Shown one piece after another: positions 13,748 to 51,100 of a DNA stretch of 64,000 nt (within the stretch, counting starts at the first letter, position 1; every line of letters starts with the position of its first letter). Both the position numbers and the translations under genes were made by a program. The notes below the pieces were generated by a model. That model was not told the origin of the DNA and ran no database searches. It worked only from the letters and a program-made list of their open reading frames with translations. The DNA is taken from positions 118,668,001 to 118,732,000 of the forward strand of contig OZ024742.1 of NCBI GenBank assembly GCA_964016885.1, given 5' to 3'. Source of the stretch: Eledone cirrhosa. Lineage: Eukaryota.

Positions 13748-13840
13748 GTTTTATCTGGTTTAGAATATATAAACCATATCCTTGTGAGTTGCCAGAGGTA
13801 ACTAAAAGGGTTGGCACCAGAAAAGGTATCCAGCTGTAGT
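13748..13840 (+). ncRNA. Candidate structured RNA / hatchet-like ribozyme head of a short RTE-related element (copy 1)
   Basis: Hairpin with GGTTTAGAAT loop, ATCCTT/AAGGGT stem and AGTTGCC/GGTAACT stem followed by AAAA; five copies in the window. Confidence 0.4.
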
Positions 13841-14020
13841 TCAATTTCTCCTGACCATAAATAAGAAGTTCACTTTGCAACCATGTGATTTGAGGTTTTT
13901 CGCTTTTGTCAAGTGTCATCTACTGACCAGTGCTTTTTGAGAGTAGAGTTTGGTAAATCAAAATTGTATGGAAGCTCCTGGGATATATAAATATATAATG
14001 TATATATGTATCATATACAT

Positions 14021-14116
14021 ATGTTTATTTGGTTTAGAATAGGCACACTATATTTCTGCATGTTGTAAGAGGCAACTAAAACAGTTGGTGTCAGGAAGGA
14101 CATCTGGCTGAAAAAC
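14021..14116 (+). ncRNA. Candidate hatchet-like ribozyme element (copy 2)
   Basis: TGTTTATTT-GGTTTAGAAT-AGGCACA...GTTGT-AAGAG-GCAAC-TAAAA...GTTGGTGTCAGGAAGGACATCTGGCTG. Confidence 0.4.
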
Positions 14117-14140
14117 TGCTTTGAAAAGGACCCCATTATT

Positions 14141-14320
14141 AGTTTGGCAGTATCGGTAGAGGGTCGGACGCCATGCTTTGACGCATAGAGTTACGGCCCT
14201 TGCCATTCTGAGTTCAAATCCCGCCGAGGTTAACTTTCATCCTTACGGGGTCGATAAAATAAGGTACCAGTAATGTAGGGATAATTGCTGGCCTTGTGCC
14301 AATAGTAGAAACAATTATTA
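14141..14320 (+). mobile_element. tRNA-derived SINE
   Basis: TGGCAGTATCGGTAGAG (A box), GAGTTCAAATCCC (B box), conserved core and GGCCTTGTGCCAA tail. Confidence 0.8.
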
Positions 14321-17300
14321 GTATATGTGTGTATGTGTCTGTTTATGTTTTGTAACTTAGTAGTTTGACAAATAGAGATAGTTGAAATAAGTAATATAAT
14401 TGACTAAACCCTTGAAGTTGATTTCTCAGCATGACCACAGACCAGTGAAGGAAACCAGTAAACCAATGAATAAACGTATTGTTTATAATTCTAAATCTGG
14501 GAATGAATACAATGAAAATAATTTTTGTTGACTGTTTGTTGCATCATTAGAGGGCTGCATTGAATATTTTTTAATAAAAGATTCTTTAGCTCTTGTTGAA
14601 GAAATTGAAGAGGTTTTAACCCTTTACTCTATATTTACTATTGTATTTATTTCACATAATTATCTCATAATATTGAATTTAAAAGATTTTGATATTCATT
14701 TTGAGAACAATACCTTAACATAAACAGCTGGTTATGGCTGATTTGGACAAAGAGGGCGAGAGAATTCTGGTCGGATACAGATGGTTTAGTTTCTCAAGGG
14801 TTAAAGAATAAACAAGAGTTACAATTTCTTAAAACAAAAAAAAAAAATAAATAAATAAATAAATAAAAGCAATTTTATATTAAATGTTCTAAAACCTAAA
14901 TGTAGTAATAAATGTGGAAATCTTAAATGACAACTAAATTGGAGTGGTAAAGCAGTTTAAATGGGTCAGGATGATAATTTCTATCAGTTGAGTAACTGTA
15001 TATCTACCAACTGATGCACTCTAGGTGGTTGGAGTCCTAATTTTAGCAGACCTTATGTCACAGTAACAGGCATGATAGTGGCAAAGATAATTTTGGTATC
15101 AGTGAAATTAAACAGAAACTATTGCTTTCCTCCTTATGAATAGATTATTAATGTATAATCTCTTTCCAGATTTAAAGACTCTCTACTTTGTGGAAATATT
15201 TCTTTTATTAATTATGAAACTTCAGCCCAGTGTCTGAACAGAGATTTATTATAAATCCACAAAAAGTATATTGTTTGGTGTGTTATCTTGCCTTAATCAG
15301 AGTTTTTTTATAGGTTAAATCACTGTCATTTTATGCTACTATCTAGAAATGTATATTTCTATTATTTCTATTTTTAATATTGCTTTTATAGTGTTTGTTA
15401 TGAAAATGATGTTTACAGCAAATACTAGTGTACAGCTGGTAACATTCCCAGAAGATCTTGTATTTATTCTCTGCAGTTTGTTAAGCTGTAGCATGTTAAG
15501 TTTGCTGCCTAGATACATAACAAAATGTCCACAGCAGGTATGAACTTACAACCTGGCTAAGCAGTGAGGAAGTTTATTTTACAATTATGTGGTTGCAGGT
15601 ATAGCCTTTGTAAGTGATATTTAGAATACAAAAATTGTATGAAAGTCTGTTATGAGTGTGTGTCCATGCATGTGCATGTGGAAGATATATTACAAACATA
15701 GTACTAATAAATTGATGTAACAAACAAGTATACTCAGTAGTATTTGTTCACCAGAGTTGCACTGACACTCTTGAAATTCTGGCCATCAGAATTGCAGTGA
15801 ACTAGTAATTGGCCCATTTGAAAACTAACCAATATTATTGTTTACAAAATCATGAAATACAATTATATAAATAACTCATGTAGCCGATATCAAATATTTT
15901 ATCCACTTGGACATTTTTCTGTTTCACAAGATCTGTTCAGTAATAAAGCAGAGGGTTATAAAAAGGTTATTTTCATCTTGGCTACATTAAATTGCAAATT
16001 AGCCATAATACAGGAGCATATTAAAGAGTTTACAACTTAGTCTTTCTTCCTTTTGGGATTGATAAATAAAGTACTGGTCTAGGGAGCAGTGGATTCATGG
16101 AATTGTTAGAGAGTTGGACATATTGCTTTGTTTTATCCGATCTAGCTCTTGTGCCATTCTGAGTTCAAATCCCACTTCCTTCTGCCAGGAGCTACAACCA
16201 ACAGATAGTATCAGCAATGGAAAAACCAATGAAAACATTGTTTCCTTGGTCTTATCTAATGATTACTTCTTTTCTTTTTCTATTATATAACAAGGGTGGT
16301 GGATTGGCAGTATCAATAGAGTGTTGTACAAAATGCTTTGCAGCATTTAGTTAACAATTTTCTATGTTCTGAGTTCAAATCCCACTTATTTCATCCTTTT
16401 TGGACTGTTAAAATAAAGTACCAGTCACATACTTGGGGTCAATGTAATTGACTTCCACTCCCAAAAATTGTTGGCCTTGTACCTAAATTTGATATAATTA
16501 TATAACTAGCTGAGGCTGCATCAAATAGGTGCACATGCTGAGATCTGTTCAAAGTCTGAGGTGTCTAGAACTTCAATCTGCCACTTGTTCTGTGAAGTTT
16601 CCAAAAACAAGCTATTTTGAAGCACCGTAAAGAGCACTTCTGCTCAGCATACGTTTTTTTGTTGTTTTTTTTTGTAGTTGAATACTTCATCTGTTCTGAA
16701 GATTGGCATAAACTTGTACTGAAAATTGACTGATGTTTTCCGTTCATATATTTACTTCATTGATTAGCACCCTGAGGCTTCCAAGATATATGCATTTCTC
16801 CTCTATATGCACTATCTGGTTAATGGTGCTTCATATAAACTTTTCCTGAAGCAAGCTGAACCATTTTTCTATGTTTTTCTTTTCTTTTCTTTATGTTGTT
16901 TTCCATATTATGACAGTAGCTCCAAACTTTTTGTAGGCAGTAGAAAATTTGTCAATGTTGCACAGCATATCAGAATCTGTAATGGTGTTTGTCATGACCT
17001 GGAATCTTGTTTGAGTCATCTAGTCTAAATCATTACTATTTATATCAATATCAATGTGTTACTACTTTTGTTGTAGTTGTTTTTGTTTATCATTATTATT
17101 GTATTTAACATGTTCTATCATGTTGTCTTGGGTTAACAGTTTGTCATAAAATATTGTCAGTTACTGTGATTCATAGCCATCTGATCCATGAGACTCAGCA
17201 TCCGAGTATCATTTGGTTCATAGTTACAAATTAGAAATACTAATGGATGATTAATGCTATTGACTTCAGGATTGGAGGAATGGGGAATTGTGAGGCTATT

Positions 17301-17355
17301 AGTAACTTAAATGATGTGAAATAGCTCTATCTACCTACCTTAAACAACTTGAACT

Positions 17356-17356
<1 letters not shown>

Positions 17357-17415
<59 letters not shown>
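17357..17415. repeat. (TA)n(GA)n compound microsatellite
   Basis: Direct reading. Confidence 0.9.
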
Positions 17416-17418
<3 letters not shown>

Positions 17419-17619
17419 GGATAGACATGGGCTCTGTAAACCACAAGGAAGACAGTCCATCTAAGAGAGCAGTTCCTCCAAATAAATAAGACTGCGTAGT
17501 GTAGGCATGAATTCTGTTAGACAAAGTGAAGGGAACCTGTCTAAGAGAGCAGTTACTCTGAATTACAACTGACATAGGGAAGGGAAGCCTCTTAATCCTT
17601 CAGCATTTACATTACTCTA

Positions 17620-19120
17620 TCATCATCATCATCATCATCATCACCGTTTTACGTCCGTTCTTCCACGCTAGCATGGGTTAGACGGGTTGTCCTGTTGTGG
17701 GCAGTGTCTGGTCGGCTGACCATGCCTTGCTCATACAGGAACTGATCTGGCTTGATTTCTACAGCTGGATGCCCTTCCTAACACCAACCTCATTTACAGT
17801 GAGTGCTGGGTGCTTTTTCGTGGCGCCTACACGTCCACTTTACAGTGTGGGCTGGGTGCTTTTTTGCCGTGGCACCTCCACGGCCACCTTGCGGGGGGGG
17901 GGGGGGGGGGGGGGGGCATATTGTTTATATGCTTCAGCATGTACCCATGGGAGGTCGGGTACCCTGTATTACTGCGTGACGCCAGAAGTCACGGTCGTGT
18001 GTCATTGACTTTGAGAGGTGTAGTTGGGTAAGGTCGGCTTTTATCACCTCATCCCACGTCATCTTGGGTCTCCCCACTCCGCGGTTTCCATCAACTTCTA
18101 GTGCTCTGCACCTTTTTATGCAGCTGTCATCCTTCATACGCATCACATGTCCATACCAGCGTAACCGCCTCTCCTGCACGCAGCATTTGATTCCTCTTAT
18201 GCTCAGTCTCTCTCTCAATTCATTTATGCTTTGTCGTTCACGTATATTACTGTTACACATCCATCGGAGCATGCAGGCTTCGTTTCTCTCTAATCTACGT
18301 AAGTCTTCCACCTTCAGCGCCCAGGTCTCACTACCATGCAACATCGCTGTTCGGATACACGCATCATACAGTCTGCCTTTCATTCTGAGGGAGAAGCCTT
18401 TTGCAGCTAGCAGTGGTAGTAGTTCCCTAAACTTCTTCCATCCCGTTCTTACCCTAGTTATTGTACTTTCTGAGCACCCACCTCCGTTGCTAATTCGGTC
18501 ACCTAGGTAGCAGAAGCTGTCTACTGTTTCTACAGGGCCCTCCCAGAGATTGGTGGTACTTGTTTCCTGTGGCTGTTTGCTTGCTGTTTCAGCACAGCTG
18601 CTGCATGTGAATCCTACATTCTTAATTAAGCTTCCTGAGATCCCGCTACATCTCTTGTGTACCCATTGTTTGCATTTGGGGCAAAGAATGGAGTTCCTAC
18701 CTACACCTTTCCTACATACTGAGCAAGGCCATTTCCCTGAGGGGATCTGGGTTCTGTTTTCTCGTCTACTTATAAGGACCTTAGTCTTTGTCATGTTGAC
18801 TTTGAGGCCCTTTCTCTCTAGTCCCTGCTTCCAGGTTTGGAATTTATTCTCTAGTTCTACCATAGATTCAGCTATGAGTGCGAGGTCATCAGCATACAGG
18901 AGTTCCCATGGGCATCCGGTCTTAAACTCCTCCGTTATTGCCTGCAGGACTATGATGAACAGGAGAGGGCTAAGAACAGAGCCCTGGTGGACCCCAACCT
19001 GTACGCTAAATTCCTCGCTATACTCATTGCCAATCCTAACTTTGCTGACTGCTCCCCTATACATGGCTTGTACCGCTTTCACAAGCCATTCATCTACTCC
19101 TAGTTTTCTAAGAGCCCACC
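17620..19120 (-). mobile_element. RTE LINE subfamily B, 5'-truncated, inserted in a MITE family 1 copy (17592-19259)
   Basis: ORF 17934-19082 with GVHQGS, YADD, C4HC3 finger and RRLRWYGH; ~310-bp 3' UTR; (CAT)n at 17620; MITE halves on both sides. Confidence 0.92.
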
Positions 19121-19276
19121 TATATATTATATTTTGATACTATTTATTTTGAGAAGAATACCTTAACATCAGTATGAGTGGCTGGTTGCAACCAATTTGA
19201 ACAGAAAGAGGTGATAGAATTCTGGCTGGTTATGGTCAGTTTAAATGCTAAAAAGTTAAGTCCTGTCAGACAACCC

Positions 19277-19470
19277 CGCTAGTATTGGTGGCATGATAAA
19301 ATGCACCCAGTCCACACTGTAAAGTAGTTGGTGATATGAAGGGCATCCTGCCAAAAATTATAGAAAGCACAACCTATAACATTCATACTAACTGCACTTG
19401 CAATATTTGGAGAAAAGCTGTGCTTGAAAAGACCCTTCCAACCCATACAAACATGGAAAAACCGATGTAG
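19277..19470 (+). mobile_element. SINE-like repeat with GCACCCAG..CTGTAAAG unit, GAAGGGCATCC box and RTE-type tail
   Basis: Same modules at 27305-27640 (-), 29957-30350 (-), 31175-31480, 35740-36385, 36590-36880 (-), 55420-55655 (-) and 59735-60040. Confidence 0.6.
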
Positions 19471-19513
19471 AAAGCATATATGATATATCATCATTTTACG
19501 TCCACTTTTTCAT

Positions 19514-19551
<38 letters not shown>

Positions 19552-19708
19552 TTTTCCTCTTAAAGTACTGTACAGTCGGTCAATGGCATGACACCAATTA
19601 AAATACATTTGGCTCTATGTAATTTCAAATTTACGGATAAAATATGAAACATTAAAGAAATTTGTCAACAGTAACTTGACACAATTTAATCTTCCATGTA
19701 TTTTTTTT

Positions 19709-19711
<3 letters not shown>

Positions 19712-19786
<75 letters not shown>
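19712..19786. repeat. (TC)n(TA)n microsatellite
   Basis: Direct reading. Confidence 0.9.
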
Positions 19787-20169
19787 CACCCTATGACCTC
19801 TCTGTCTTTTAATATATTTCTCTTCCTTTCACTCTAACCCCTCTCTCTCAACATAAGGATATTAGCATTGACTTCATTTTACTCAGTAAGTGTTACATTC
19901 TCTAAAATAACAAATCTGATTATGTTAATGTATGTCATCTGATACCATCAAAATGATACTTAAAGATAGAGTATCAGTTCTATTTTGTTAGTTATCCCCT
20001 ATATAATTCATCATTATGGCATGTGAACAGCGGCCAATTAACTTGCTTCATATTTCATTTTCTATGATATGACATATTGTATTAATTCTTGCTGTTAGTT
20101 TTGATTTATAGAATTAATGTTTTGTTTCAGAGTTGTACTTGCCAATGGCTTGATCTGTGACTGTTCAAA

Positions 20170-20410
20170 CTAAAACAATTACATCATAGAAGCCATTTTA
20201 GTAATTTAAAAATACACATAAAAACTGTTAAATTTACTTTATATATATCATTTATTTCATGGTGTTAAAATTTTGAATCTGTATCAATGAACAAGTTGTA
20301 AACAGTGTGGTGGAAATTTTAACACCAAGAAATATATGGTAGATGTAATTTAATAGTTTTGTGTGTGTTTTTGAATGGATAAAATAACTTCTATGTTTTT
20401 GTGTTTTTAA
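20170..20410. repeat. Degenerate foldback (palindromic) MITE
   Basis: Arms AAAAATACACATAAAACTGTTAAATT...ATTTCATGGTGTTAAAATTT / AAATTTTAACACCAAGAAAT...AATTTAATAGTTTTGTGTGTGTTTTT; shorter relative near 57195-57340. Confidence 0.55.
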
Positions 20411-20836
20411 TTATATGATATATATATCAATTTTTTTTTAAAATTACTAATTGTTTATAGGGTTGTCTAGAAAATCATTTAATTTTATAACTTTAGTCAT
20501 GTTTTCATTGCAATAGAGTATTTAAACCTTTGATGTAACACTATTTTGGAATTGTTGAAGTATCATAGGAAACAAAAACTACAGGGATTCTCCAGTGTGT
20601 CTTCCTAGTAAGAACTCTTTTAAGATATATATGTAAGAAGTACAATGTTATTTAGTAGTGTAACATAGGATTGAATGTTAAAGAACTGCTACTCTATTTC
20701 TAATGAAACACTGCCTATGAGTTTCAAATAATTTTGAAAATAATCAAGAATTTGATAGAATTTAGTAATATAATTAACTTTCTCATTATGAAGCTGGTGT
20801 TTGGAACATAACTTAACAAAAGTTTTTTATATAAAA

Positions 20837-21179
20837 CTAGATGAGGGCGATGTCTTCTCCCTTTCTCTCTCACACCCTCACACACTCTCTCTCTAAACAA
20901 ATGACATTCCTTTTCTCTCGATATATGTACATCTCTTTCGCTTGGCGCTCCCCCTCTGTCGTCTTCTCCCCACACACACACACTCTCTCTCTGTAAACAA
21001 ATGACGTTCCTTTTCTCTATCTCGCTCCTCCCTCTATATAAATGAGGGCAATGTCATAACATTTTGTCTATCTCTTTCTGTCACCTCAAAAACACACGGC
21101 AGCGTTCCCATTTCTCTCTATATAAATAAAGTGAGCATGATAGACGAACAGACAGACAGCGCTCTTATTATAATATAGA
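20837..21179 (-). mobile_element. Non-autonomous Helitron nested in a MITE family 2 copy
   Basis: The minus strand begins A|TCTATATTATAATAAGAGCGC and ends CTAG|T; no TSD; MITE sequence resumes on both sides. Confidence 0.7.
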
Positions 21180-21627
21180 TTTTAAAAATAAATATAAACA
21201 TACTAAAATAAGCAGCTTTGTGTGATAGAACCAGAGGTAGTTTCAGGTGGTTTGGTATCAAAGGGGTTAAATGAGGTTCACAAATAAATGTTCAGCATTA
21301 ATTCCCAAGAATGATTTAAGTGCAAATGTAACTGCACCTATCTAGGTATGGTTTTCAAATGAATGTTTAATGGGAATGTGTTGTCAATTGAGGTGGAAAG
21401 TATCTGAACCAAAAGTAGCCTGTACTGTTGGTTCAGTCAGATATACTCCTTCTAAAAAGTCTGGCCATATATTCAGTATATTTTGTTATAGTTTTATGGG
21501 TCAGTAGAACTAGACAATTTGCAGTATCTGCGTTCCAATTCATGCCTTAGTCAACTTTGTCTTTATTCCTGCTGGAGTTGAGGAAATAAGGTCTAAGATG
21601 AATTAAAGTAAAACCCTTTCCATACAA

Positions 21628-22467
21628 TGATCCTTGGCGCACCTCCTTACTCACTGCTACCAAAGCTGAGCTGGCTACATGCAGGAGTGATCTTTGGAGC
21701 ACCTCCTTACTCACTGCTACCAAAGCTGAGCTGGCTACATGCATGAGTGATCTTTGGAGCTCCTCCTTACTCACTACTACCAAAGCTGAGCTGGCTACAT
21801 GCATGAGTGATCTTTGGAGCTCCTCCTTACTCACTGCTACCAAAGCTGAGCTGGCTACATGCATGAGTGATCTTTGGAGCTCCTCCTTACTCACTGCTAT
21901 CAAAGCTGAGCTGGCTACATACATGAGTGATCTTTGGAGCTCCTCCTTACTCACTGCTATCAAAGCAGAGTTGGCTACATGCATGAGTGATCTTTGGAGC
22001 TCCTCCTTACTCACTGCTACCAAAGCTGAGCTGGCTACATGCATGAGTGATCTTTGGAGCTCCTCCTTACTCACTGCTATCAAAGCAGAGTTGGCTACAT
22101 GCATGAGTGATCTTTGGAGCTCCTCCTTACTCACTGCTATCAAAGCAGAGTTGGCTACATGCATGAGTGATCTTTAGAGCTCCTCCTTACTCACTGCTAC
22201 CAAAGCTGAGCTGGCTACATGCATGGGTGATCTTTGGAGCTCCTCCTTACTCACTGCTATCAAAGCTGAGCTGGCTACATGCATGAGTGATCTTTGGAGC
22301 TCCTCCTTACTCACTGCTATCAAAGCAAAGTTGGCTACATGCATGAGTGATCTTTAGAGCTCCTCCTTACTCACTGCTATCAAAGCAGAGTTGGCTACAT
22401 GCATGGGTGATCTTTAGAGCTCCTCCTTACTCACTGCTATCAAAGGTGAGTTGGCCACCTACATGAG
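21628..22467. repeat. 60-bp minisatellite, 14 units, derived from CRE-like retrotransposon coding sequence
   Basis: Unit TGATCTTTGGAGCTCCTCCTTACTCACTGCTAYCAAAGCWGAGYTGGCTACATGCATGAG; homologous to 28628-28680. Confidence 0.95.
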
Positions 22468-23240: not shown

Positions 23241-23637
23241 TGTATTTTCCATTGTTGTTTAACTACCAATATCTGAAGGAAACTGTGTGCATGTATTTCC
23301 ATTGACTTTGGTTTTTGTATAATCCATATTTCTGTTGCATTCTGGGTTTCATCTCTTTGGTTTTGAATTTGATATAATCCATCGTGAACTTGAAATTCTC
23401 AGCTTCCTAATAATATCTGAGATACCAGAATGAACACTAAAGCAAAGAGTTCAACAAGGAAACTGGATGACACTTAGGTGTGTTGAATTGAGGAACTATG
23501 GTTGTAGTGTGTGTGTGTTTCAGTATCACCATAAACTAGATGTGAGCCTTCCATGAAGTTTTCTACTCAATTTGTTTATCAGTTGAAGCTATTTTAGTTA
23601 AGTTTTGAAGGAATGTACCAATATCACTACAATACTG

Positions 23638-23820
23638 TGTGTATCCAGTTTAAAATAAGTAGATAATATCCCTGTGTGTCAGCAACTAAAAGAGGTGGCA
23701 CCAGAAAGGAAACCCGACTGTAAAACTTGTCTCATTATAGTCTCACTGATGAACATGAAACGTATCGGTGAGCTCGCAAGGTTTAACCCCCTTTAGCAAA
23801 GAAGATGGCCTTAAAATGAT
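23638..23820 (+). mobile_element. Short bipartite element: candidate ribozyme head plus RTE-like tail (copy 3, complete)
   Basis: GTGTATCC-AGTTTAAAAT...ATCCCTGTGTGTC..CAACTAAAAG..GGCACCAGAAAGG...GTAAAAC ... AACCCCCTTTAGCAAAGAAGATGGCCTTAAAATGAT. Confidence 0.5.
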
Positions 23821-24029
23821 TGGTGTTGTATGTATATCACTATAATTAATCTGTTATTGGTGTTGCATTGTGTCTGTAGATAGTAATCAACTGTAAATAG
23901 CTTAGTCTAAGCAAGTTGTAAATTGGTTCTATGTGGTGAAGGAAAAGTGTGAATATCACAGCTAAACTGACTAGTTTCCCATCTGAATGAACCTGGGAGG
24001 TTGATCATTTATGAACTTACAACTCTAAA

Positions 24030-24220
24030 CATAATTATTTCTACTTTTTAGCACAAGGCCAGCAATTACCCCAGTGCATGACTGGTGCTTTAATCTATCA
24101 ACCCCGTAAGGATGAAAGGCAAAGTTAACCGTGGCGGGATTTGAACTCAGATCATACAGGGCCATAACTCTATGCTGCAAAGCATGGCATCCGACCCTCT
24201 ACCGATACTGCCAATCCACC
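24030..24220 (-). mobile_element. tRNA-derived SINE with flanking ~15-bp duplication
   Basis: Reverse complement of the 14141 family; ACTCTAAACATAATT at 24022 and at 24221. Confidence 0.8.
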
Positions 24221-33581: not shown

Positions 33582-35417
33582 ATCATCACCATCATCATCA
33601 TCATCACCGTTTTACGTCCCTTCTTCCATGCTAGCATGGGTTAAACGGGTTGTCTTGTTGTGGGCAGTGTCTGGTCAGCTGACCATGCCATGCTCATACA
33701 GGAACTGATTTTGGCTTGATTTCTACAGCTGGATGCCCTTCCTAACACCAACCTCATTTACAGTGAGTGCTGGGTGCTTTTTCCGTGGCGCCTACATGTC
33801 CACTTTACAGTGTGGGCTGGGTGCTTTTTTGCCGTGGTACCTCCACGACCACTTTGCAGTGGGAGGGTGTGGGGGCATATTGTCTATATGCTTCAGCTAG
33901 TACCCATGGGAGGTTGGGTACTCTGTATTACTGCGTGACGCCAGAGGTCACGGTTGTGTGTCATCGCCTTTGAGAGGTGTAATTAGGTAAGGTCGGTTTT
34001 TATCACCTCATCCTAGGTCTTCTTGGGTCTCCCCGCCCCGCGGTTTCCATCGACTTCTAGTGCTCTGCACCTTTTTATGCAACTGTCATCCTTCATACGC
34101 AACCGCCTCTCCTGCACACAGCATTTGATTCCTCTTATGCTCAGTCTCTCTCTCAATTCATTTATGCTTTGCCGTTTGCGTATATTACTATTACACATCC
34201 ATCGGAGCATGCAGGCTTCGTTTCTTTCTAATCTACGTAAGTCTTCCACCTTCAGCGCCCAGGTCTCACTACCATGTAACATTGCTGTTCGGATACACGC
34301 ATCATACAGTCTGCCTTTCATTTTGAGGGAGAAGCCTTTTGCAGCTAGCAGTGGCAGTAGTTCCTTGAACTTCTTCCATCCCGTTTTTACTCTAGTTATT
34401 ATACTTTCTGAACACCCACCTCCGCTGCTAATTCGGTCACCTAGGTAGCAGAAGCTGTCTACTGTTTCTACAGGGCCCTCCCAGAGATTGGTGGTACTTG
34501 TTTCCTGTGGCTGTTTGCTGTTTGCTGTCCCAGCACAGCTGCTACATGTGAAGCCTACATTCTTAATTAAGCTTCCTGAGATCCCGCTACATCTCTTGTG
34601 TACCCATTGTTTGCATTTGTGGCAGAGAATGGAGTTCCTACCTACACCTTTCCTACATACTGAGCAAGGTCATTTCCCTGAGGGGATCTGGGTTCTGTTT
34701 TCTCGTCTACTTACAAGGACCTTAGTCTTTGTCATGTTGACTTTGAGACACTTTCTTTCTAGTCCCTGCTTCCAAGTTTGGAATTTTTTCTCTAGTTCTA
34801 CCATTGATTCAGCTATAAGTGCGAGGTCATCAGCATACAGGAGTTTCCATGGGCATCCGGTCTTAAACTCCTCCGTTATTGCCTGCAGGACTATGATGAA
34901 CAGGAGAGGGCTAAGAGCAGAGCCCTGGTGGACACCAACCTGTACACTAAATTCCCCGCTATACTCATTGCTAATCCTAACTTTGCTGACTGCTCCCCTA
35001 TACATGGCTTGTACAGCTTTCACAAGCCATTCATCTACTCCTAGTTTTCTAAGAGCCCACCAGATTACAGCACGTGGAACTCTCTCTGTCAAAGGCTTTC
35101 TCGAGATCGACGAATGCCAGGTAGAGTGGCTTACTTTTAGCTAGGTACTTTTCCTGTAACTGCCTCACAAGGAAGAGGGCATCAGTGGTACCTCTTCCTG
35201 GTACAAACCCAAATTGCATCTCATCTAGTTTCACTCGGTCCCTAATCAACTGTGCTATAACTCTTTCTGTTACTTTCATGACCTGGTCCATCAGCTTTAT
35301 ACCTCTATAGTTTCCTCTATCTAGTGCATCACCTTTACCTTTGTTGCAGTTGACAATGATGCTACTACACCAATCTTTTGATATGACACCTTCTAGTATT
35401 ACCTGGTTAACAATACG
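33582..35417 (-). mobile_element. RTE LINE subfamily B, 5'-truncated and frameshifted
   Basis: RT motifs in ORFs 35049-35291, 34670-35092 and 34013-34321; near-identical to 17620-19120 and 40693-42450; (CAT)n tail. Confidence 0.92.
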
Positions 35418-38830: not shown

Positions 38831-38968
38831 TTGAAGGCCTTTCACTATGAATTTTTAAGATTGTGACCATCGTCACACACCTAGCCTCAGCAAAACCTAC
38901 TCCCTGTTTTTGCTGAGGGTGTGTGACGATGGTCACAATCTTAAAAATTCAAAGTGAAAGGCATTCAA
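38831..38968. repeat. Near-perfect 138-nt inverted repeat (hairpin)
   Basis: 50-bp outer arms with 2 mismatches, plus an 11-bp inner stem CCTCAGCAAAA/TTTTGCTGAGG. Confidence 0.92.
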
Positions 38969-39056: not shown

Positions 39057-39158
39057 GACAATGTTTTAAATGTAATGAGAAGGTGACTGGTAGCAATGAG
39101 GCATGTCAGGCAATGGGGAACCTATATCATACTAAATGCTTTGTATGTTGTTCCTGTG
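39057..39158 (+). CDS. WTIP: LIM gene exon (LIM1 N-terminal part), phase 1-1
   Basis: tttattttccAG|GACAATGT...TCCTGTG|GTAAGT; encodes [34 protein letters not shown]. Confidence 0.93.
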
Positions 39159-42100
39159 GTAAGTACATAGTTTGATTTTTACTTATATGTTTATTTTTTA
39201 TGTTTTCAGGTAGAATTTTGGAATATTAAAATATTTTGCCAAAATTTGATTGGGAATGAGATATAAAACAAAATAGTATTGCAGTTCTGAGTGCTCTCTA
39301 TTTTTCATTGTGAATCAATATTCTGTGCATATTAATATTATTATATAACTTTTAGCAACGTATTACTCTGTGTGTATTTAGTTTCAAATAGATACATAGT
39401 ATCCTTGCATGTCATAGAAGGTGACTAGAATAGTTAGCACCAGGAAAGACATCTGGTTGTAAACAAGACCCCTTGAGAGCCAACAAGGATAACCCTTTTT
39501 CTAGCAGGTAAAATAGCCTTTAAATAATTGAATAATTTTTTAATTATTTTTTTGATAAATACATAGAACCTCAGTACACAAACTTAATTCATTTCTGAAG
39601 CCGTTTGTCACCTGAAATGTTCATAAACCGAAAATATTTTTCCCATGTGAAATGTTGAAAGAGAGACAGTATGTGAAAGACAGATAGATATCACCATAGT
39701 AACTAACTACACAACAAGTGACACTTTCCTGTCAATACTCCCAGCTTGCAACCAACCATTGTTGCTGGCATCCATGTTTGTTACTCGAGACACTGTTGGT
39801 CGCTTGAGACATTTTATGTTCAGAAAAATTGTTCGTGAACTAACATTCCACTGTATTTCCTATCTAATCTCAAACTTTCATATAGGTCAATATAAATGTT
39901 TTTCTAAAACTTAGACAATACTTTCTGAAACTTGTATTACCTAAATAAGAACAGAACAGAAGAGAAAATTTCAGCTCCTTCAATAATACATAAACATCCA
40001 AAATCTTTCTGTTTATTGAAAATCAACAAGTTTCTAATATTAAGGAAGCTAACAATTAATGTAGTTACTACCATGACAATTATAATATAACCTTATTATT
40101 ATATATTCAGGACTTAACAAGTCTAACACAAGCTGTTGGCACCTATAAAATAAGCTGTCAAATTCTAAATACTGCTAGATATCTTTGTTTTAGTAAATGT
40201 GTCACTTGAATAAAATAAATAAATAGACAAAGAAATGAGATTAAAATAAAATAAAAAACAGAATTGTGGAGATAAAAATCAATATTCTATTAATATTCCA
40301 TTCACCACCATGCCTCAATTTTTTATTTTTTCAAGCTCTTATGGGTCGGGACAGATAGCATGAATAGATTTATTTTGTTGTTATTTAGTAGTGTTGGTAG
40401 AGCGTCGGACAACATGCTTTGTCACATAGAATTACAGCCATTTAAGTTCTGAGTTCAAACTCTGCTGAGTTTAGCTTTGCCTTTCGTCCTTACGGGGTCG
40501 ATAAATAAAGCACCAGTAATGTACTGGGGTCAATTTGATCGACTTTCCCCTTTCCCCAAAATTGTCCGCCTTGTACCTAAATCAGAAATCCTTATATGTA
40601 TGATAACAGCACAAATCAACTAATGAAAAGTAGTCATGTTCTTTCATTTGCTCATTTTGTCTTTCTCTAAAATGCAAAATCTTAGGTGGATTTACAAAGG
40701 TAAAGGTGATGCACTAGATAGAGGAAACTATAGAGGTATAAAGCTGATGGACCAGGTCATGAAAGTAACAGAAAGAGTTATAGCACAGTTGATTAGGGAC
40801 CGGGTGAAACTAGACGAGATGCAATTTGGGTTTGTACCAGGAAGAGGCACCACTGATGCCCTCTTCCTTGTCAGGCAGTTACAGGAAAAGTACCTAGCTA
40901 AAAGTAAGCCACTCTACCTGGCATTTGTCGACCTTGAGAAAGCCTTTGACAGAGTTCCACGTGCTGTAATCTGGTGGGCTCTTGGAAAACTAGGAGTAGA
41001 TGAATAGCTTGTGAAAGCGGTACAAGCCATGTATAGGGGAGCAGTCAGCAAAGTTAGGATTAGCAATGAGTATAGCGAGGAATTTAGCGTACAGGTTGGT
41101 GTCCACCAGGGCTCTGTTATTAGCCCTCTCCTGTTCATCATAGTCCTGCAGGCAATAACGGAGGAGTTTAAGACCGGATGCCCATGGGAATTCCTGTATG
41201 CTGATGGCCTCGCACTTGTAGCTGAATCTATGGTAGAACTAGAGAAGAAATTCCAAACTTGGAAGCAGGGACTAGAAAGAAAGTGTCTCAAAGTCAACAT
41301 GACAAAGACTAAGATCCTTGTAAGTAGACGAGAAAACAGAACCCAGATCCCCTCAGGGAAATGGCCTTGCTCAGTATGTAGGAAAGGTGTAGGTAGGAAC
41401 TCCATTCTCTGCCCCAAATGCAAACAATGGGTACACAAGAGATGTAGCGGGATCTCAGGAAGCTTAATTAAGAATGTAGGCTTCACATGTAGCAGCTGTG
41501 CTGGGACAGCAAGCAGCAAACAGCCACAGGAAACAAGTACCACCAATCTCTGGGAGGGCTCTGTAGAAACAGTAGACAGCTTCTGCTACCTAGGTGACCG
41601 AATTAGCAGCGGAGGTGGGTGTTCAGAAAGTACAATAACTAGGGTAAGAACGGGATGGAAGAAGTTTAGGGAACTACTACCACTGCTAGCTGTAAAAGGC
41701 TTCTCCCTCAGAATGAAAGGCAGACTGTATGATGCGTGTATCCGAACAGTGATGTTGCATGGTAGTGAGACCTGGGCGCTGAAGGTGGAAGACTTACGTA
41801 GATTAGAGAGAAACGAAGCCTGCATGCTCCGATGGATGTGTGACAGTAATATACGCGAACGACAAAGCATAAATGAATTGAGAGAGAGACTGAGCATAAG
41901 AGGAATCAAATGCTGTGTGCAGGAGAGGCGGTTGCGCTGGTATGGACATGTGATGCGTATGAAGGATGACAGCTGCATAAAAAGGTGCAGAGCACTAGAA
42001 GTCGATGGAAACCGCGGAGTGGGGAGACCCAAGAAGACCTGGGATGAGGTGATAAAAGCCGACCTTACCCAATTACACCTCTCAAAGGCGATGACACACG

Positions 42101-45100
42101 ACCGTGACCTCTGGTGTCACGCAGTAATACAGAGTACCCGACCTCCCATGGGTACAAGCTGAAGCATATAGACAATATGCCCCCACTGCAAGGTGGTCGT
42201 GGAGGTGCCACGGCAAAAAAGCACCCAGCCCACACTGTAAAGTGGACGTGTAGGCGCCACGAAAAAGCACCCAGCACTCACTGTAAATGAGGTTGGTGTT
42301 ATGAAGGGCATCCAGCTGTAGAAATCAAGCCAAATCAGTTCCTGTATGAGCAAGGCATGGTCAGCCGACCAGACACTGCCCACAACAGGACAACTCGTCT
42401 AACCCATGCTAGCGTGGAAGAACGGACGTAAAACGGTGATGATGATGATGTTACCTCATGGTCCAAGCCAACAGAATTGCGAAGGCATGAATTATTATCC
42501 TTGAGAATATTGAGAGAAATATGCTGAAAGAGCCAATCTAACTCATGGGGCCCGTTTTTGTAGGTGACCAACTCCATGCTGATGTTACTTGTTTCTCTTA
42601 TTCCTTTTGTCAATGAAATTACTATTAAGTTACCTAAAACATTCATTATTTTTACTCACTGCATCTCCTTCAAATCAGAAGACAGTTCTTATAGTCTGCC
42701 TTTTCATATACATTTTCTTTTTATACATCCAGTAGATTATACTTGTCTAATTATTCACCAGCCTCTATCTCAGAGGGTCTCAAACTTTTTGGGCCATCGC
42801 CCCCTCACAGCCACATAATACCTTCAGCGCACCCCAACCCTATTTCCAGATAGACCTGCCAACACGCAAGTTATAGATAATATAATATATACTATATCCG
42901 GATAGTAAACCAAGTAATACAGAATGGGTTCATACCAAATGACTGGCGTAGCAGCAACATCATTAACTGCTACAAGGGTAACGGAGATGCTCTAGATAGG
43001 GGAAACTATAAGGCTTTAAGTTAGTTGACCAGGTCATGAAGGTCACAGAAAGAGTTATAGCGCAACTAATCAGAGAGCGAATTGATCTAGATGAAATGCA
43101 GTTTGGGTTTGTTTGTGTCAGGTAAAAGTACCACAGACGCTCTTTTTCTTGTACGACAACTACAGAAGTACCTAGCTAAAAGTAAACCTGTCTACTTATC
43201 TTTTGTTGACTTGGAGAAAGCCTTTGACAGAGTCTCCCGCTTGACTATCTGATGGGCTCTTAGAAAACTAGGTGTTGATGAATGGCTTGTGAGAGCTATA
43301 CAAGCCATGTACAAAGAAACAGTCAGCAAGGTTAGAATTAACAACGAATATAGTGAAGAATTTAGCATAAAAGTTGGTATTCATCAAGGCTCTGTCCTTA
43401 GCCCCCTCCTATTTATTATCGCCCTTCAGGCTATAACAGAGGAGTTCAAGACCGGCTGCCCATGGGAACTTCTATACGCAGATGATCTAACTCTCATAGC
43501 TGAATCGGTGGCTGAAATAGAGAAGAAATTCCAAACATGGAAGCATGGCTTAGAATCAAAAGGCCTTAAAGTTAACTCGTCTAAGACTAAAGTTCTAGTA
43601 TGTAGAAAGGAAAATAGAGACAGATGCCCTCTGGGAAATGGCTATGCTCAGTGTGTAGGAAAGGAGTAGGCAGAAATTCCATTTTCTGTCCCAAATGCAA
43701 ACTATGGATACATAAAAGATGTAGTGGGATCACAGGTAAGCTATCTAAGAACGTAGATTTTATATGTGGCTGATGCTCAGGTGCAATAAGTAACAAGTGC
43801 CCACAGGATACTAGCTCCTTCAATTGCCCAGATGGTTCTATAGAAATAGTGGACACCTTGGTGACAAAATCAGCAGTGGTGGAGGGTGCTCTGAAAGTAC
43901 AGTAGCCAAAGTCAGAATGGGATGGAAAAAGTTCAGAGAGCTTATACCACTATTGGCACTAAAGGTTTCTCTTTAAAAATGAAAGGCAGATTGTATGATG
44001 CCTGCATACGAACAGCAATGTTACATGGCAGTGGGACTTGAGCATTGTGTGCAGAGGACCTGCGCAGACTGGAGAGGAACGAAGCTTGCATGCTCTGTTG
44101 GGTGTGTAATAGTAATATACGCGAACAGCAAAGCGTAAATGAACTAAGTGAGAAATTAGGAATAAGAGGGATCAGATGCTGTATACTCGAGAGAAGACTA
44201 CATTGGTATGGTCACGTGATGCGCATGAAAGACGACAGCTGTATAAAAAAGTGCAGGGCGATCAAAATTGATGGAAGTTACGGAGTAGGTAGACCCAGAA
44301 AAACCTGGGACGATTTGATAAATTCCGACCTTACACACTTACACCTCTCTAATACAATGTCACTGGACCGAGATCTTTGGCGCTACGCAGTAATACAGAA
44401 GACCCGCCTTGCCTATGTACAAAGCGAAACCTACAGTCAGTAGGCACCTCTTAACCAAATATACACCCCCATCCGACTACCCCCCCCCCCCCCCCCCCCA
44501 CTCCCACCAACACCACCCTTTCTCTGTAAAGTTATGTTGGTACCACAACATCCAGTCCTAAATAAATGAGGTTGTGTAGGTGTCACGACAAAAAAAAACA
44601 CACAGTCCACGCTGTAATGTGGCCGTGTAAGTAACACGGTAAAAACCTCCCAGTCCACACTGTAAACGTGGTTGGTGTTAGGAAGGGCATCCAGCCATAG
44701 AAAACCTGCCAGACAGTCCTATACGAGCGAGACACGGTCACCCAACCAATCTTGCCTCAAGTGGGACAATTCCCATCTAAACCCATGCTAGCGTGGAAGA
44801 TGGACGTTAAACGATGATGATGATACTATGCATAAATGAATATTATATAATTTTTTTTATTTTACTATATATATAATATGTATCATTTGATATTTAATAT
44901 ACTATTATAACATCTCTACAGCCCCCTAGACCACCTCAAGGCTCACCGGGGGGTGGTAGCGCCACTTTGAGAATCTCTGCTCTATCTTATCTACTCAATG
45001 CAAATTCTGCAACAGATTTTTTACATATGCTGTCTATAGCCTGCCTTTTGCCAAGAGCAGGGATCAACAACATTTTGAAACAGCCGACTTTCAATTTTCT

Positions 45101-48100
45101 TTTTGGTTTTACCCATGACCCACATGTATATTATATTATATCTTACATATAAAACTTTGAAACTGTCCAAGACCCACAGAGATCACATCAATGGTTCACT
45201 TTGTTGCCAACCCCTACCCTATATAGAGAAAACATCTAAAGCGGTTCTTGCAGCTCTATTGAACCAGGTCATCATCATGTCAAAGATTTCAAAATATCCA
45301 ATTGTGTGTATTTGTGTTATCGCCTTAAAAACTATAATGAATAGTTGGGGATAAAGTCACAGCTTTGTTGGACACGTTTTTTTACTGAGTTTTTCACTAA
45401 ATTTGCTGCCAATCTTACAACACCATACTATATGTTTTAAACTTCTTGTATGTCATTAATTTACACCTGGTTTTCTCAATCTCCACCAAACTACAGGGTT
45501 TTCTCCAAATCAATGAATGCAAAGTTAAATTCTTAACTAAGAATGCTTCATGCAGTTGTCTCACTATAAATATGGTATCTGTAACCCATGTCTCTGTACA
45601 AACCCAAACTACCCAAAACCAGCCTGATTCTATTCTGCACTAACTTTGCTCTGACTCTTACAACAGCTTTTATTATTGTGTCCATTAGATTTAGGCCTCT
45701 ATAATTGTCTCTCTCCCATACATCTTTGCTCTTTAAGCAGTTTGCAATGCTATTTTGCCCTGTCCGTTATTGGAGATAGTTCCAGAGTACACTACTATAA
45801 ACAACAGCCAAATCTTCCTCTTATCACATCCTACCAATTTTTAAAGGGGAAAGGACACACTGGATAATTATAGTCCTAAAAACACTGTCTGGAGAAGAAA
45901 AGATGGAATGATCACAGCTGGAATGTCTTTGATCATAGGTTTACTCAGTCAGAGTTGAACTGAGGTTAAACAACAACATTTCATATGATCCATTAAAGAA
46001 ACTTTTACATGATAAAGGCATTTTTTTTTTCCCAACAAAGGACTTTCTATGAAACATTTATACATTTCCTCTTGTGAAACACAAATTTAAACAATTTTTG
46101 CAGGTGGCAATTGTCACTAGTTTTCTCAGATGCTAGTGTTTTTTGTAGTTTACCTTCCTGGTTAATGAGTCCCACTCCTTCACAGTTAAAAATATCTAAT
46201 AAAAAAGAACCTATACTACAGTGAAAGTCTTTTTACAGCTGATTGTCCTTTTCCTCACTATTAAACCATTAAATAAGTATTGTAGCTACTGTTCAGTTAA
46301 ATTGAATTAGGCAAATAAAGATCCTACTATTATACCATTCAGAGTATTGGAATTTATATCTCTGGTCCCAAATCTGAACTGCTCAACTATGTTATTCTTA
46401 TTAACTTATTTACTGCTAGACTCTACAGGGAATGAGAATTATCAAGTTTCCTATGAAATAAAAAAACAAAACAACTGTAACAACTATTCACAATTTGACC
46501 TAGTGGATTAATATGAAAATGGACACCAGTGTATAATTTCTGTTTTACTCACATTTGTTAGCTATTTCATTGGCTACAGCTGGTGTTATGCAATTTCTTT
46601 AAATTCAATAGAATCTACTTTTTTTTATATTTCAATATTGTATATTTAGAAAACTCAACACAAATAGTGTTAAAAGTAGATCAAATCTCCTAGTTGTTTC
46701 ACTATGAAAAATATTTGGTAATTTAATTTGGTCACTGTTTTATTTTTCTACTTTTATTAACATTAAAAGATTATTGATTCTAATCTTAGTTTTATCAAAT
46801 TCTTTTACTGCCATTAAATGGATGACATTCTACTCCTTTATTTATTTTGTATTTTTATCAAGCTTGCTGAGATATATTTTCCCTTGTATGTCTTAGTATC
46901 ACTGTTACTTTAGAAATCATTCTGTATGCTACTTTACTTGATATTTTGTACATACTTTAGTATGTTTATAATTGTAAAATATTTATAGAATAGAATAGCA
47001 AAATATAAACAATCTGGGTATATTATTGTTATATAACAGAAGAGTGGAGTTGAAAGTTCTGTAAGTCAGTTACCCTGCTTATTTTTCCCTTTAGTTTTAA
47101 TAGATAATTGTTTTATTTCTTATATATGGTGATGCATTTAACCCAAATGAATTATCAACATAGATTACAATAAAATAAAATAGAATGCCTTCTATACTAC
47201 TAAAAACAACTGTTTAGTATTATTGAGCTATGACATGTTAACTCTTAGTGTCCTGTACTGCAAGAAACCACATTAACAAGGCATTTTTGAAATGTTCAAA
47301 GCAGCACTGAGTGCATCACATTGAAATTTAAAGTTTTTACTTCAGTTTACTACAAACTTTTACAACGATCTGCCCACCAGTAAATATACTATAAACTTTT
47401 AAATTAACAGCAGATTTTAGATATTTTCTACTAAATCATTACCAGATGTTAAATGTTAATAGAATAATTGTCAACTAATTTTCAGCAAGTTAGTGAACAC
47501 TTAATGAATAACATATCTTGGAGGTTAGATGTATTTTGGGATATAATTGGAGCACATATAGTTTTAGAGACACAGATATCTTTTTATATGTTGATGTATC
47601 CAGTACTACCTAACATTTTGGTCCCTTATTTTGAGGTATATTTAATCCACTGATTCTCAACGCGGCATCAGATTTACCATCATCATCATCATACGTCCAC
47701 TTTTCCCTGATTGCGGGTCCTATTCACCATATTAGTTTTAATTAATGATCAGGAGATTTAAATACAAAAATAACCACATTAAAGCTATTATTATATTACA
47801 TGCTATTGAATGAATCTCATATTACTTAAATCAGTTTATTTCAGCACAGAAGCAGAGGGTGCACACCATTAGAATCTATTGTAATTGTAATTAAAAAATA
47901 AGCATAAACCATATAAAACAAATCAGCCATCCAACACATGCAGAACTTCTTTTATAGGATTTTCCAGAGGATGATTTACCAAAACAGTCCTTCTGGAGGT
48001 TCCAGCAGTAATCTGCCGTTACATATTCCACTTTCTCTGCTACTTCTCTTCTATTGTCTTTATATCCTGATGAAATAGTTTTCCTAAATCATTATTCTTT

Positions 48101-51100
48101 TCTGGAAGGTGATCTATGTAACTGGAGGTAATGGATCTTGATACACATGTTACAGCCAATCTTTATAAAATTGGAGAGCATGTCCTCTAACTTGGCCAAA
48201 ATTTTGAACTCTGCATTTAGTAGAATTATGGGCCTGAAATTATTTATGTAGTCCCCCTTGTTCGGGTCCTTTCTCAGCAGCGTTACCGCTCCTCAACTCA
48301 CAGAACTGGGAATTCAGTTGCAGTAGACATCTGCCAAAAGGCTGCTGAACAAGTCTGACACGTGAACATAAAGCTTGTATGGCAGACCATCCAAACCAGG
48401 CGATTTACACCTCGTGTAATTAGTCATTACATCCCATATTTCAGCGGTTGTTATTGGCCTTTCGCAGCAATCCACCTCCATTGTCAAGAGCCATGGCAGG
48501 CTGTCAAGGTAATGAAAAGTCCATCCCATGCCCGCCACTGCTTTCAATCAGTTGAGCAAATTACTGCTGAAAGGCTGCACACATCTGCTTTGTTGTCACA
48601 CTGTGCCTCTGCCATTTGGGCCCATTGAACGGCTTTCATCCCTTCATGTCTAAGAGCCATGAGTAATTGTTAAAATAGTTTGGTTTCATTTTTTGGTGGG
48701 GATAGGGGAGTAAACAACAGCAAACTAGTTTAATGTAAAAGTCTAACATTTGGACTTATTGTGCTCTCTTCTAAATAGCCTACCGAAATAATCCAATTCC
48801 TCCAAAAACATAAGCTATGTGCCACCTTATTCAGTTCCATGTAATGGTTTCATAGAACAGACATATTTTTAGCAATAATTTTAACACCAAACACAATGTT
48901 GAATGATATACTGAGGCAATGTTTTTAGTAGCTGATTCTGTAATATAGTTTTTCACTATATATAAAGAGATTAGCTGAGTGTATTTTGGTTTAGAATAGG
49001 TACATCTTATACCTGCATGTAAGAGACAACTAAAAGACTTGGCATCAGGAAGGACATACCAAAAGTAGTGTTATTCATCTTGTTTTATTTTTTTTTTTTC
49101 ATGTTGTTTACCTTTTTGTCAGTCTTATTAAAATGCAAATATGACATTGGAAATGTTACTCTTGAGTTGCTTTAAATGATTCGTGAATTTTAAAATATTT
49201 CTCTCTTCAGGCCGTACTCTGCGAGGAAAAGCATTTTACAATGTCCATGGAAAAGTTTACTGTGAAGAAGATTACCTCGTAAGTTAATGTTATTTTATTA
49301 AGATAATTATAAGTTTAAATGTAATATTAGTAGTGACTTTTCATAACAGTGATTAGAAAATATCATTGATATAATATTTGCCATTTTATATTCTCATACC
49401 AATGATATTTGACTATATCCCACCATTCTGGAATCCTATTTTGTCACACACTATTGTTTACCACTGTTATTCGTCTTACTTTCTTTAGCCTGAGTTCTTT
49501 GGAAAGGCATTGCTGTAAGTTTTGTCAATTTCATAATTTCATTATCTTTCCTTTTTTCCTGATTTAATTTTTGGGGTTTCTATGTGGGTGCCCATATGAT
49601 GTGTTTAAGATTCAGAGTAACACAATAAATTGTTGGTATTATTATAAGTTTTTCAGTAAACTATTAGCTTTATTATACCATTTTTGTAAAGATATATTTA
49701 ATTAAAAAATATATAATTTGAAAATTCATATTTATTGAGCTTTATAGATTTTCTGATTCTACATCATCACAATTTTATGTTTGTTTTTCTATGTTGGTCT
49801 TGATTGGGTGGGAACATCTCATTACTTGCTTAGGTCTATTGATATCTGACACACTCAACGACAGAAAACCACATGTATGTTTAGGAGGGATACAGTTCTA
49901 TTGTTGACCATTTTACATGGACTGGGTGCATTTTATCAGATCACCAGTAGAATTAAAGTCTCCTCTACTTCTTTATCAGATTTAATTTAGAGTTATTGCT
50001 CTATTAAATATGTTGACTTTGTTATGGTTTGCAGAATCCATGTTTCCTTTGTGTGATTAGGGTACAGCTCTTTTCAAAGGGTGCCTAACTTTCTAGATGT
50101 GTCACTTTAACTACAGTTGGGAAGCTTTATCTCTTAATAATGTTGTGGGGGAGTTAGTTACCAATGAGACTCATTGTGATAGTATAAGGCCACTGGTTGT
50201 TGCTGTGATATTAGGAGGGGAACCTTAATTAATAGGAGGAGCCCAGGTTTAATACAATTGGAATATCAGCTTTCCAGATAGGTCATTTTCGCTACAGCTG
50301 AGAAGCTGATAGGATGCATATATCAACCACTATTGATAATTTCTAAATATTTTAATAACAGCAACAATTTTCAACTCAGTATTTTCACAGAAAAAAAGCT
50401 TCCTGTTTCTCCAGTTATAAGGAGAAATGGCAGTGATGGCAACAAAAATAGCCCCTTACCAACAGCTTAAGTTGGCTGATTGATGCATCTACAACACCAG
50501 AACCACTAGCAATAACACAAACATAAAAAATACAGAAGCTGAGGCAGCAAAAGCAACATAGACAGCAGCATAATTTCTGCTATAACTGAAACTGCTTCCA
50601 CTGTAGCCAATACATCTGTCACCTCCAAAGGCAGCCACTGTAGCAGCAACCATAATAACAATGGATACAATAAAGCAGCTACAAGGACTGGGTCTTTTAG
50701 TAGTGAAGCAACAGTCACTGAGCAACTAGAAATATAATGAAAATCTTGCAAACATATCTAAAAAGAGGACAGGAGAGTCATTTTGGTTGTCACAAATAGT
50801 AAAGCAGGATGTCAACTGTAATATATCTGTGCATAAGCAATGCATGCCAAGATGGAAAAATGCCTGAATACAGTATAGAAGCAAAAACCTTTGTTACTTG
50901 TGCTAAGCAGCATGAACCATGAAGGTTAGAGCCCTCACAGAGGCCAAAACCAAGTCTCACCAATTTTCATAATAGACATGGATTGGTGAGTAACAAAGGT
51001 GACGGTGGTTGATATGTCACAAAAAATTAGCACCTGATATTTAATAACTGGTGGTAACAGGCTTTATCAGGAGAAGTGATTGGATATGGGGCTCTTAGTC

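Follow-up and report, generated by a model that had tools for sequence, protein, structure and literature searches.

A domain of about 70 bp at the 5′ ends of the elements Nimb-17_LMi, I-3_DR and RTE-9_CPB and of several mollusc short interspersed elements (SINEs) has been described by Matetovici et al. (2016, PMC4758252) as the LP, or LINE-promoter, domain (LINE, long interspersed element); a promoter role was proposed there and left untested. In the bipartite non-autonomous derivatives of RTE LINEs (Kojima 2018, PMC5786205) a LINE 5′ end is joined to a LINE 3′ tail, with no RNA polymerase III head. The window analysed in this work is the whole of a 64,000-nucleotide stretch from Eledone cirrhosa (NCBI GenBank assembly GCA_964016885.1, contig OZ024742.1, positions 118,668,001 to 118,732,000 of the forward strand). 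It contains five repeats which are decayed copies of an old, genome-wide, non-coding retroelement family with LINE-derived tails, and the head of this family is the LP domain of Nimb/I and RTE LINEs and mollusc SINEs. Comparison of distant relatives predicts that the head folds over about 70 nt into three side-by-side hairpins with two pseudoknots, and the same motif was found in 3′ untranslated regions (UTRs) of viruses. In the literature searched (subscription journals, Repbase reports, figures and bioRxiv supplements lay outside its scope) PMC4758252 was the only paper on this domain found, with no structural description and no viral 3′ UTR match in print; as far as that literature shows, the fold, its occurrence in viral 3′ UTRs and the resulting argument against a promoter that acts purely as DNA are new here.

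The E. cirrhosa family adds a new member to the LP SINEs. It is non-coding, has no tRNA or 5S head, carries a Nimb-17-like head of about 70 bp at its extreme 5′ end, and shows a LINE-type tail with a terminal microsatellite as well as target-site duplications. The published LP SINEs (PMC4758252) also have no A/B box and a LINE-type tail, and in the scallop rows labelled "Nimb-17 homology" and Pan_3 the 5′ end shows the same two features, an AGAAT-ended hairpin and the CGTAAGAGGCGACTAA core. The present family differs from them in having its own middle module and tails, and the published account, in the available part of that paper, is one of sequence alone, with no structure, no viruses and no cephalopod family. 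From the bipartite RTE derivatives, as described in the available part of PMC5786205, it differs in that no autonomous head-bearing LINE was found in its own genome and in that the head is common to several LINE clades.

The fold was obtained from an alignment (A3, MAFFT, unfitted) of seven sequences, six viral and one from E. cirrhosa, in which L041a/b, L050, L163, L026, L086, L161, L385 and the window copies were left out; most of these rows are included in the pairing tests on 15 or 16 sequences. RNAalifold on the seven sequences gave three adjacent hairpins, with two-sided changes at 10 of the 16 pairs. With the 5′ pseudoknot added, 96.8% of the cells were paired and 0 of 500 shuffles reached any measure, the structure being partly derived from the same alignment; pairs with two-sided changes in this alignment numbered 11 versus 6.3. 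In 15 family-level sequences taken at fixed offsets, hairpin 1 was paired in 94 of 105 cells versus 78.3 after partner swap in a re-optimised control, hairpin 2 in 54 of 60 versus 35.8, and pseudoknot 2, between the loop of hairpin 2 and the bases after hairpin 3, in 52 versus 37.2; 0 of 5000–20000 swaps reached the observed values. Pseudoknot 2 is absent in two of the 15 sequences (L155 and L156). These comparisons show covariation of hairpins 1 and 2 and of pseudoknot 2 across unrelated families. The motif opens with bases complementary to the hairpin 1 loop across a single U, an arrangement with the geometry of an H-type pseudoknot (pseudoknot 1). Hairpin 3 is invariant in this set and its loop fits the T-loop pattern in 17 of 17 sequences, most of these bases having been fixed by the search patterns; a pattern with a relaxed hairpin 3 stem found no further member. 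A putative T-loop in hairpin 3 presumably docks the AGAAU loop.

The motif occurs in six distinct small virus contigs (L154, L155 with the near-identical L157, L156, L158, L380 and L385), its viral hosts being tombus-, noda-, tetra- and toti-like contigs. Domains of RNA-dependent RNA polymerase (RdRp) were detected in L156, L158 and L380 and capsid domains in L155, L156 and L385, and L154 gave no Pfam match. In all six contigs the motif is in the sense orientation, 6–123 nt 3′ of the last stop codon and 89–183 nt from the contig end, and in L154 and L385 it is present in tandem. In a large DNA virus contig of 212 kb (L379) it lies between two same-strand open reading frames (ORFs). A tightened pattern applied to the whole collection returned exactly eight contigs, all of them these viruses and none a phage, and loose viral patterns gave only the known contigs and chance matches in long phage-like contigs. 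Two weak matches without hairpin 1 (L674 and L683) were dropped. Since the RdRp viruses that carry the motif have no DNA stage, it must work as RNA. The head is a structured RNA module which moves between LINE clades and virus lineages.

A pattern of the 18-base core, with nothing required upstream of it, gave five viral and five prokaryote-collection contigs, and AGAATA stands at the right distance in eight of the nine that had enough upstream DNA. Two of the prokaryote-collection contigs (L160 and L163) are LINEs in which the head is followed by ORF1 and an endonuclease-encoding ORF2. A pattern scan of metagenome contigs gave at least 121 stretches of animal-like repeats in three main families, with at least 119 distinct heads.

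The place at which the elements begin was determined in positions counted from the first pair of hairpin 1. In E. cirrhosa, conservation is 0.76 at −3, 0.46 at −4 and at the background of 0.35 at −5 (79 of 125 copies), so that the start is at −4. Among the matches listed for the three young metagenome families, conservation falls sharply at −8, −8 and about −7 (32 of 43, 35 of 57 and 12 of 19 anchored), the starts being at −7, −7 and −5/−6, with random flank beyond. The elements therefore begin 4–7 nt upstream of hairpin 1 and 0–2 nt before the pseudoknot 1 strand, and their first bases are those which pair, in predicted pseudoknot 1, into the hairpin 1 loop. The extreme 5′ position of the head is found in independent families, namely that of E. 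cirrhosa, the three metagenome families, the two LINEs and the published LP SINEs and LINEs.

Several further arrangements of the head were observed. Tandem repeats of 40 nt, comprising the part with pseudoknot 1 and hairpin 1 alone, precede the full head in L020 (1700–1900, minus strand) and L585 (2465–2593, plus strand), and one element in L041 (1371–1517, plus strand) has two complete, differing heads in tandem at its 5′ end. In family C (L050, 2723–2819, plus strand; L080; L065) the head precedes a tRNA-derived segment that looks intact, as it does, independently, in the scallop MESC SINEs. A family B element of 163 nt in L122 (280–450, plus strand), with a 13-bp target-site duplication, has an internal deletion which joins head to tail. 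Animal-like retroelements lie inside bacterial genome assemblies in L159, L160, L161 and L163; such retroelements in bacterial or symbiont assemblies are probably host DNA contamination.

Within E. cirrhosa itself the stems show decay. The sequence-only reading of the window had proposed that the first hairpin keeps its pairing despite divergence and that the distal stem covaries. The first hairpin keeps 375 of 441 pairs, no more than the mean of 376.7 obtained after shuffling partners among copies, and the distal stem 197 of 252 against a shuffled mean of 198.9. The distal stem is GTCG/CGAC, with one CpG per side, and both CpGs have decayed in 42 of 88 genome-wide copies, in 15 of them in a compensatory and in 27 in a non-compensatory manner; among 12 copies chosen by tail alone the figures were 0 and 6. 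The apparent covariation is that of CpG decay, and none beyond it was detected among the 88 own-genome copies with shuffled partners. All helices are intact in only one (L031) of 63 ungapped copies. The pairing of ATCCTT with AAGGGT, which had been read as closing the distal stem, is real, and it forms a pseudoknot rather than an enclosing stem.

The same reading had likened the head to the hatchet class of self-cleaving ribozymes. A hatchet ribozyme has four stems, a conserved C20–A22 linker, the conserved segments U28–G31, G63–G66 and A73–A75, and cleavage at the base of P1, and its L1 bases are, in the available parts of the reports, not highly conserved (PMC4604424, PMC6561176). The head shares with RF02678 a 5′ hairpin with an AGAAU-ended loop and an A-rich strand near the 3′ end, but has another topology, lacks the conserved core and has its boundary off the hairpin base. 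In place of the P3-L3-P4 arm, which in the hatchet plan is enclosed together with L2 by P2, there is one 4-bp hairpin. The bases after hairpin 1, supposed to be a CAA linker, form a covarying strand (first pair CG in 4, AT in 4, TA in 4 and GC in 2 of 15 sequences), and the supposed UGGG strand, equivalent to U28–G31 with its G30, G31 and G31–C64 pair, varies (TGCG, AGGC, CACG, TGCT, CGGA) and pairs in hairpin 2. The start upstream of hairpin 1 is not at the base of P1, and a 5′ boundary away from the first hairpin had been named in that reading as a ground for giving the idea up. RF02678 gave no match in the window (E ≤ 10), in one copy, in the E. cirrhosa genome (43 candidates scored) or in 13 intact-head loci (E ≤ 5). 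Rfam scans of the window, the copies, the genome and the 13 loci returned no ribozyme, exoribonuclease-resistant RNA (xrRNA) or other fitting family. An HDV-like fold was rejected on inspection, since P3-L3-P1 does not fit into the space that separates the candidate P2 strand from CUAA; twister, pistol and hairpin ribozymes were rejected on their topologies and for want of an Rfam match.

As to function, the reading which we prefer, though tentatively, is that the head is an xrRNA by which promoter-less elements would be trimmed out of host introns. The first xrRNAs to be discovered were in viral 3′ UTRs. They depend on a pseudoknot, can stand in tandem and are present in Tombusviridae, and cellular ones are treated, in the available part of the source, as not yet found and as an open goal (PMC8374639). 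An element would be transcribed from host promoters, within a host intron or a read-through RNA; a 5′-to-3′ exonuclease degrading this transcript would stall at the knotted 5′ strand; and the element-sized RNA left after the stall would be copied by a LINE reverse transcriptase (RT) from the borrowed tail. In viruses, the product of such a block would be a short, non-coding RNA from the 3′ end. A decay block would, with one activity, account for both the sharp 5′ ends of promoter-less elements and a viral site behind the last stop codon. The five sense copies tolerated inside one gene are expected of a decay block and less of an efficient cutter. In common with the viral xrRNAs of classes 1, 2 and Tombusviridae/Luteoviridae (PMC8374639), the motif is found at the start of the 3′ UTR and in tandem copies, with 5′-terminal bases in a predicted pseudoknot and a second pseudoknot as a latch. 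It could represent, with the same reserve and at a likelihood that we place somewhat short of even, a new xrRNA class common to animal LINEs and SINEs and to unrelated RNA and DNA viruses. It would then be the first cellular xrRNA, and would provide a third route to a 5′ end, neither promoter nor ribozyme, in which host decay is stalled at a knot.

Several points weigh against a decay block. The fold corresponds to no described xrRNA class: the head has no enclosing stem or three-way junction, gives no Rfam match and, unlike the viral examples in the available part of PMC8374639, stands at retroelement 5′ ends. Pseudoknot 1, the key feature, covaries weakly, with 43 of 64 Watson–Crick pairs versus 38.4 in 16 sequences, a value reached in 986 of 20000 swaps; in the seven sequences 21 of 21 cells are paired, with one two-sided change. 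Relatedness among the families is not corrected for in the swap controls. The motif has about 25 near-invariant bases, which point to catalysis or factor binding more than to a mechanical block, though most of them were fixed by the search patterns, and the connectivity of the head is that of a ribosome-binding element discussed below. No head-bearing LINE was found in the own genome among 60 endonuclease/RT loci, 20 long stretches and 25 young-LINE 5′ regions, and no genome-wide sense bias of the copies was detected (59 of 106) with a weak flank-skew proxy (calibration 13 of 20).

A less likely reading is that the head is a new small self-cleaving ribozyme, cutting 1–2 nt before the 5′ pseudoknot strand and so freeing the element from host transcripts. 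Ribozymes at LINE 5′ ends are an established finding (PMC5786205, PMC6765202), and they are present in RTE, Ingi and R2, clades that give rise to bipartite short elements (PMC5786205). The 5′ boundaries are sharp to a single base with random upstream flank, the predicted double pseudoknot and the many invariant bases are like those of known ribozymes, linear RNA viruses have ribozymes, also in tandem pairs (PMC13725137), and the DNA-virus motif sits between two same-strand ORFs. However, in 6 of 6 small viruses the motif follows the last ORF, and cleavage there would deprive the genome of its 3′ end, while the viral ribozymes in the available part of PMC13725137 lie in 5′ UTRs or before an ORF. 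The lack of a match to any Rfam ribozyme and the presence of five sense copies in one gene also speak against a cutter.

Less likely again, and doubtful, is a tRNA-shaped ribosome-binding element like the TSS of turnip crinkle virus, which would act as a 3′ cap-independent enhancer in viruses, in cap-independent initiation on LINEs and as a ribosome dock for SINEs, the 5′ end being made otherwise. The head has three hairpins with upstream and downstream pseudoknots, as in such 3′ enhancers, and its connectivity is that of the TSS, in which H4a/psi3 and H4b/psi2 are stacked and psi2 joins H4b to the base of H5 (PMC5336357). Both have three hairpins, the first two stacked, with loop 1 paired upstream and loop 2 paired at the base of the third, and both are viral 3′ UTR elements. 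The 3′ UTR site in tombus-, noda-, tetra- and toti-like contigs and the T-loop pattern of hairpin 3, partly fixed by the search, agree with this. On the other side, hairpin 3, at 4 bp, is far shorter than H5 and is invariant, the five upstream adenylates needed by the TSS are absent, the head is about 70 rather than about 100 nt long and is common to retroelements, and the reading leaves unexplained why non-coding elements of many origins start exactly on the knot.

That the head is an internal RNA polymerase II promoter acting as DNA is highly improbable, as its stems covary while the sequence changes and the motif is present in RdRp-bearing viruses without a DNA stage. In its favour are the 5′-terminal position and the LP proposal itself, as well as the 77-bp end of L1Tc, which is both promoter and ribozyme (PMC4758252), and the head may have a second, DNA-level role beside that as RNA. 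A hatchet ribozyme is next to impossible, all five testable defining features having failed, even though the order of AGAAU-ended loop, stem, GAC and UAAAA recalls that class.

The extent of the family was assessed in the E. cirrhosa genome (3.0 Gb) with three head queries and one tail query, which gave 40–41 matches each, 40 candidates being scored per query; the loci fetched contained 125 distinct head copies. Copy density is uneven, with five copies in the window, two in the flanking 400 kb and one in 200 kb of scattered stretches, which suggests, as a rough estimate, a number of the order of ten thousand. Complete elements with tail A are about 190 nt long (median 189, n = 37), and an exact target-site duplication of at least 7 bp was found in 7 of 37 old copies versus 1.2 in shifted controls. 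Two tail types were distinguished, A in 102 and B in 26 of the 125 copies, by loose motifs which count a few copies twice. Tail B lies directly 3′ of the ends of LINE reading frames in the same genome, and the terminal hairpin of tail A resembles that of tail B more distantly. Tail A opens with an extra hairpin (CCCCATGA...TCATGGGG in good copies; window 23700–23760, plus strand).

One LINE of this kind, at window positions 4148–6815 on the plus strand, is 5′-truncated and comprises an endonuclease remnant and RT, with a 3′ end like tail B and, more distantly, tail A; it is a candidate for the lineage which mobilises the family. It belongs to a young LINE family, 40 of 40 scored copies being 98–100% identical, which is RTE-like by C-terminal motifs and a single endonuclease–RT frame. 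Its 5′ region (window 4148–6815, plus strand; L630–L654) has a variable number of tandem repeats of about 170 nt, like monomer promoters, and no LP head. The three head matches among the 60 endonuclease/RT loci are separate short copies, and in L649 there is one adjacent old copy. The middle module of the family is also present in other SINEs of the window. LINE fragments at window 17800–19140 and 33750–34670 (minus strand) and 41000–42480 and 43600–44860 (plus strand) consist of a reading frame to its end, a tandem-unit region, the GGAAGGGCATCC module and tail B, and the module shared with the family seems to lie in the LINE 3′ UTR rather than the 5′ UTR.

The five plus-strand copies listed in the sequence-only reading are all present, and each was recovered by a profile of the other four (5 of 5, E 2e-16 to 3e-21), with 0 matches in the reversed-sequence control; their pairwise identity is 51–68%. 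Their true starts (13746, 14019, 23635, 39368 and 48975) lie 3–4 nt 5′ of the first hairpin. Copy 1 (13746–13839; model R1, E 1e-7) has the head and middle module, with the 3′ part lost, and is in intron 1 of a LIM-domain gene. Copy 2 (14019–14142; E 2e-11) has the head, the middle module and the start of tail A, and is interrupted by a tRNA-headed SINE at 14146. Copy 3 (23635–23825; E 0.0016) is full-length with tail A, and a 6-nt deletion destroys its hairpin 3. Copy 4 (39368–39530; E 2e-9) has the head, the module and an internally shortened tail A, and copy 5 (48975–49057; E 6e-6) the head and start of the module with a deletion in hairpin 3; both are in intron 2. In copy 4 the predicted 5′ strand of pseudoknot 1 (39368–39370), which is the element start, has its partner at 39379–39381, decayed in this copy. 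It is followed by hairpin 1 (39372–39397; 7 bp), whose conserved AGAAT loop end is mutated here, by the abutting hairpin 2 (39398–39409; 4 bp), whose loop pairs with bases 3′ of hairpin 3 to form pseudoknot 2, and by hairpin 3 with the following TAA (39411–39428; 4 bp, a T-loop-like loop of 7 nt, both CpGs decayed). Broken pairs or deletions are found in every window copy, and these are likely to be inactive fossils.

Other statements of that reading stood up. The tail is common to copies 3 and 4, no tRNA-type A/B box is present in any of the five copies, and no tRNA was found either. The description of a promoter-less, LINE-mobilised short element headed by a conserved structured RNA which defines its 5′ end agrees with the lack of an A/B box and with one tail type being a LINE 3′ end in this genome. 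In copy 3, tail A contains a hammerhead-like CTGATGA...GAAAC, not common to the other copies. The tRNA-headed SINEs of the window lie at 14146–14350 (plus), 793–850 (minus) and 57566–57638 (plus); the first abuts copy 2, and an equivalent juxtaposition after a copy was seen in L015.

All five copies lie, in sense, in introns 1 and 2 of the plus-strand LIM-domain gene, their orientation being set by the exon at 39057–39158 (plus strand); the first coding exon lies outside the window, about 12 kb upstream, and the next LIM exons are at 49211–49278 (plus strand; weak Pfam match, E 0.018) and 54630–54760 (plus strand). The gene (window 39057–63600, plus strand, and about 12 kb upstream) is presumably an Ajuba/LIMD1/LPP-like LIM gene. 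The CpG observed/expected ratio falls from 0.5–0.9 outside the gene to 0.2–0.35 inside. Copy flanks are CpG-poor, 94 of 106 being below 0.45 versus 27 of 80 random bins, and 20 of 20 for tail-selected loci, as might be expected in methylated gene bodies. A near-perfect inverted repeat of 90 nt (window 38855–38944), 110 nt before the LIM exon, gave a weak miRNA-like Rfam match.

In 2016 the head was recorded as a possible promoter and its conservation was left without an explanation; it now appears as a covarying RNA, predicted to form a double pseudoknot, at retroelement 5′ ends and in viral 3′ UTRs. Each of three possible identities would, if true, be new: a cellular xrRNA, a new ribozyme class, or a ribosome-binding module common to viruses and transposons.

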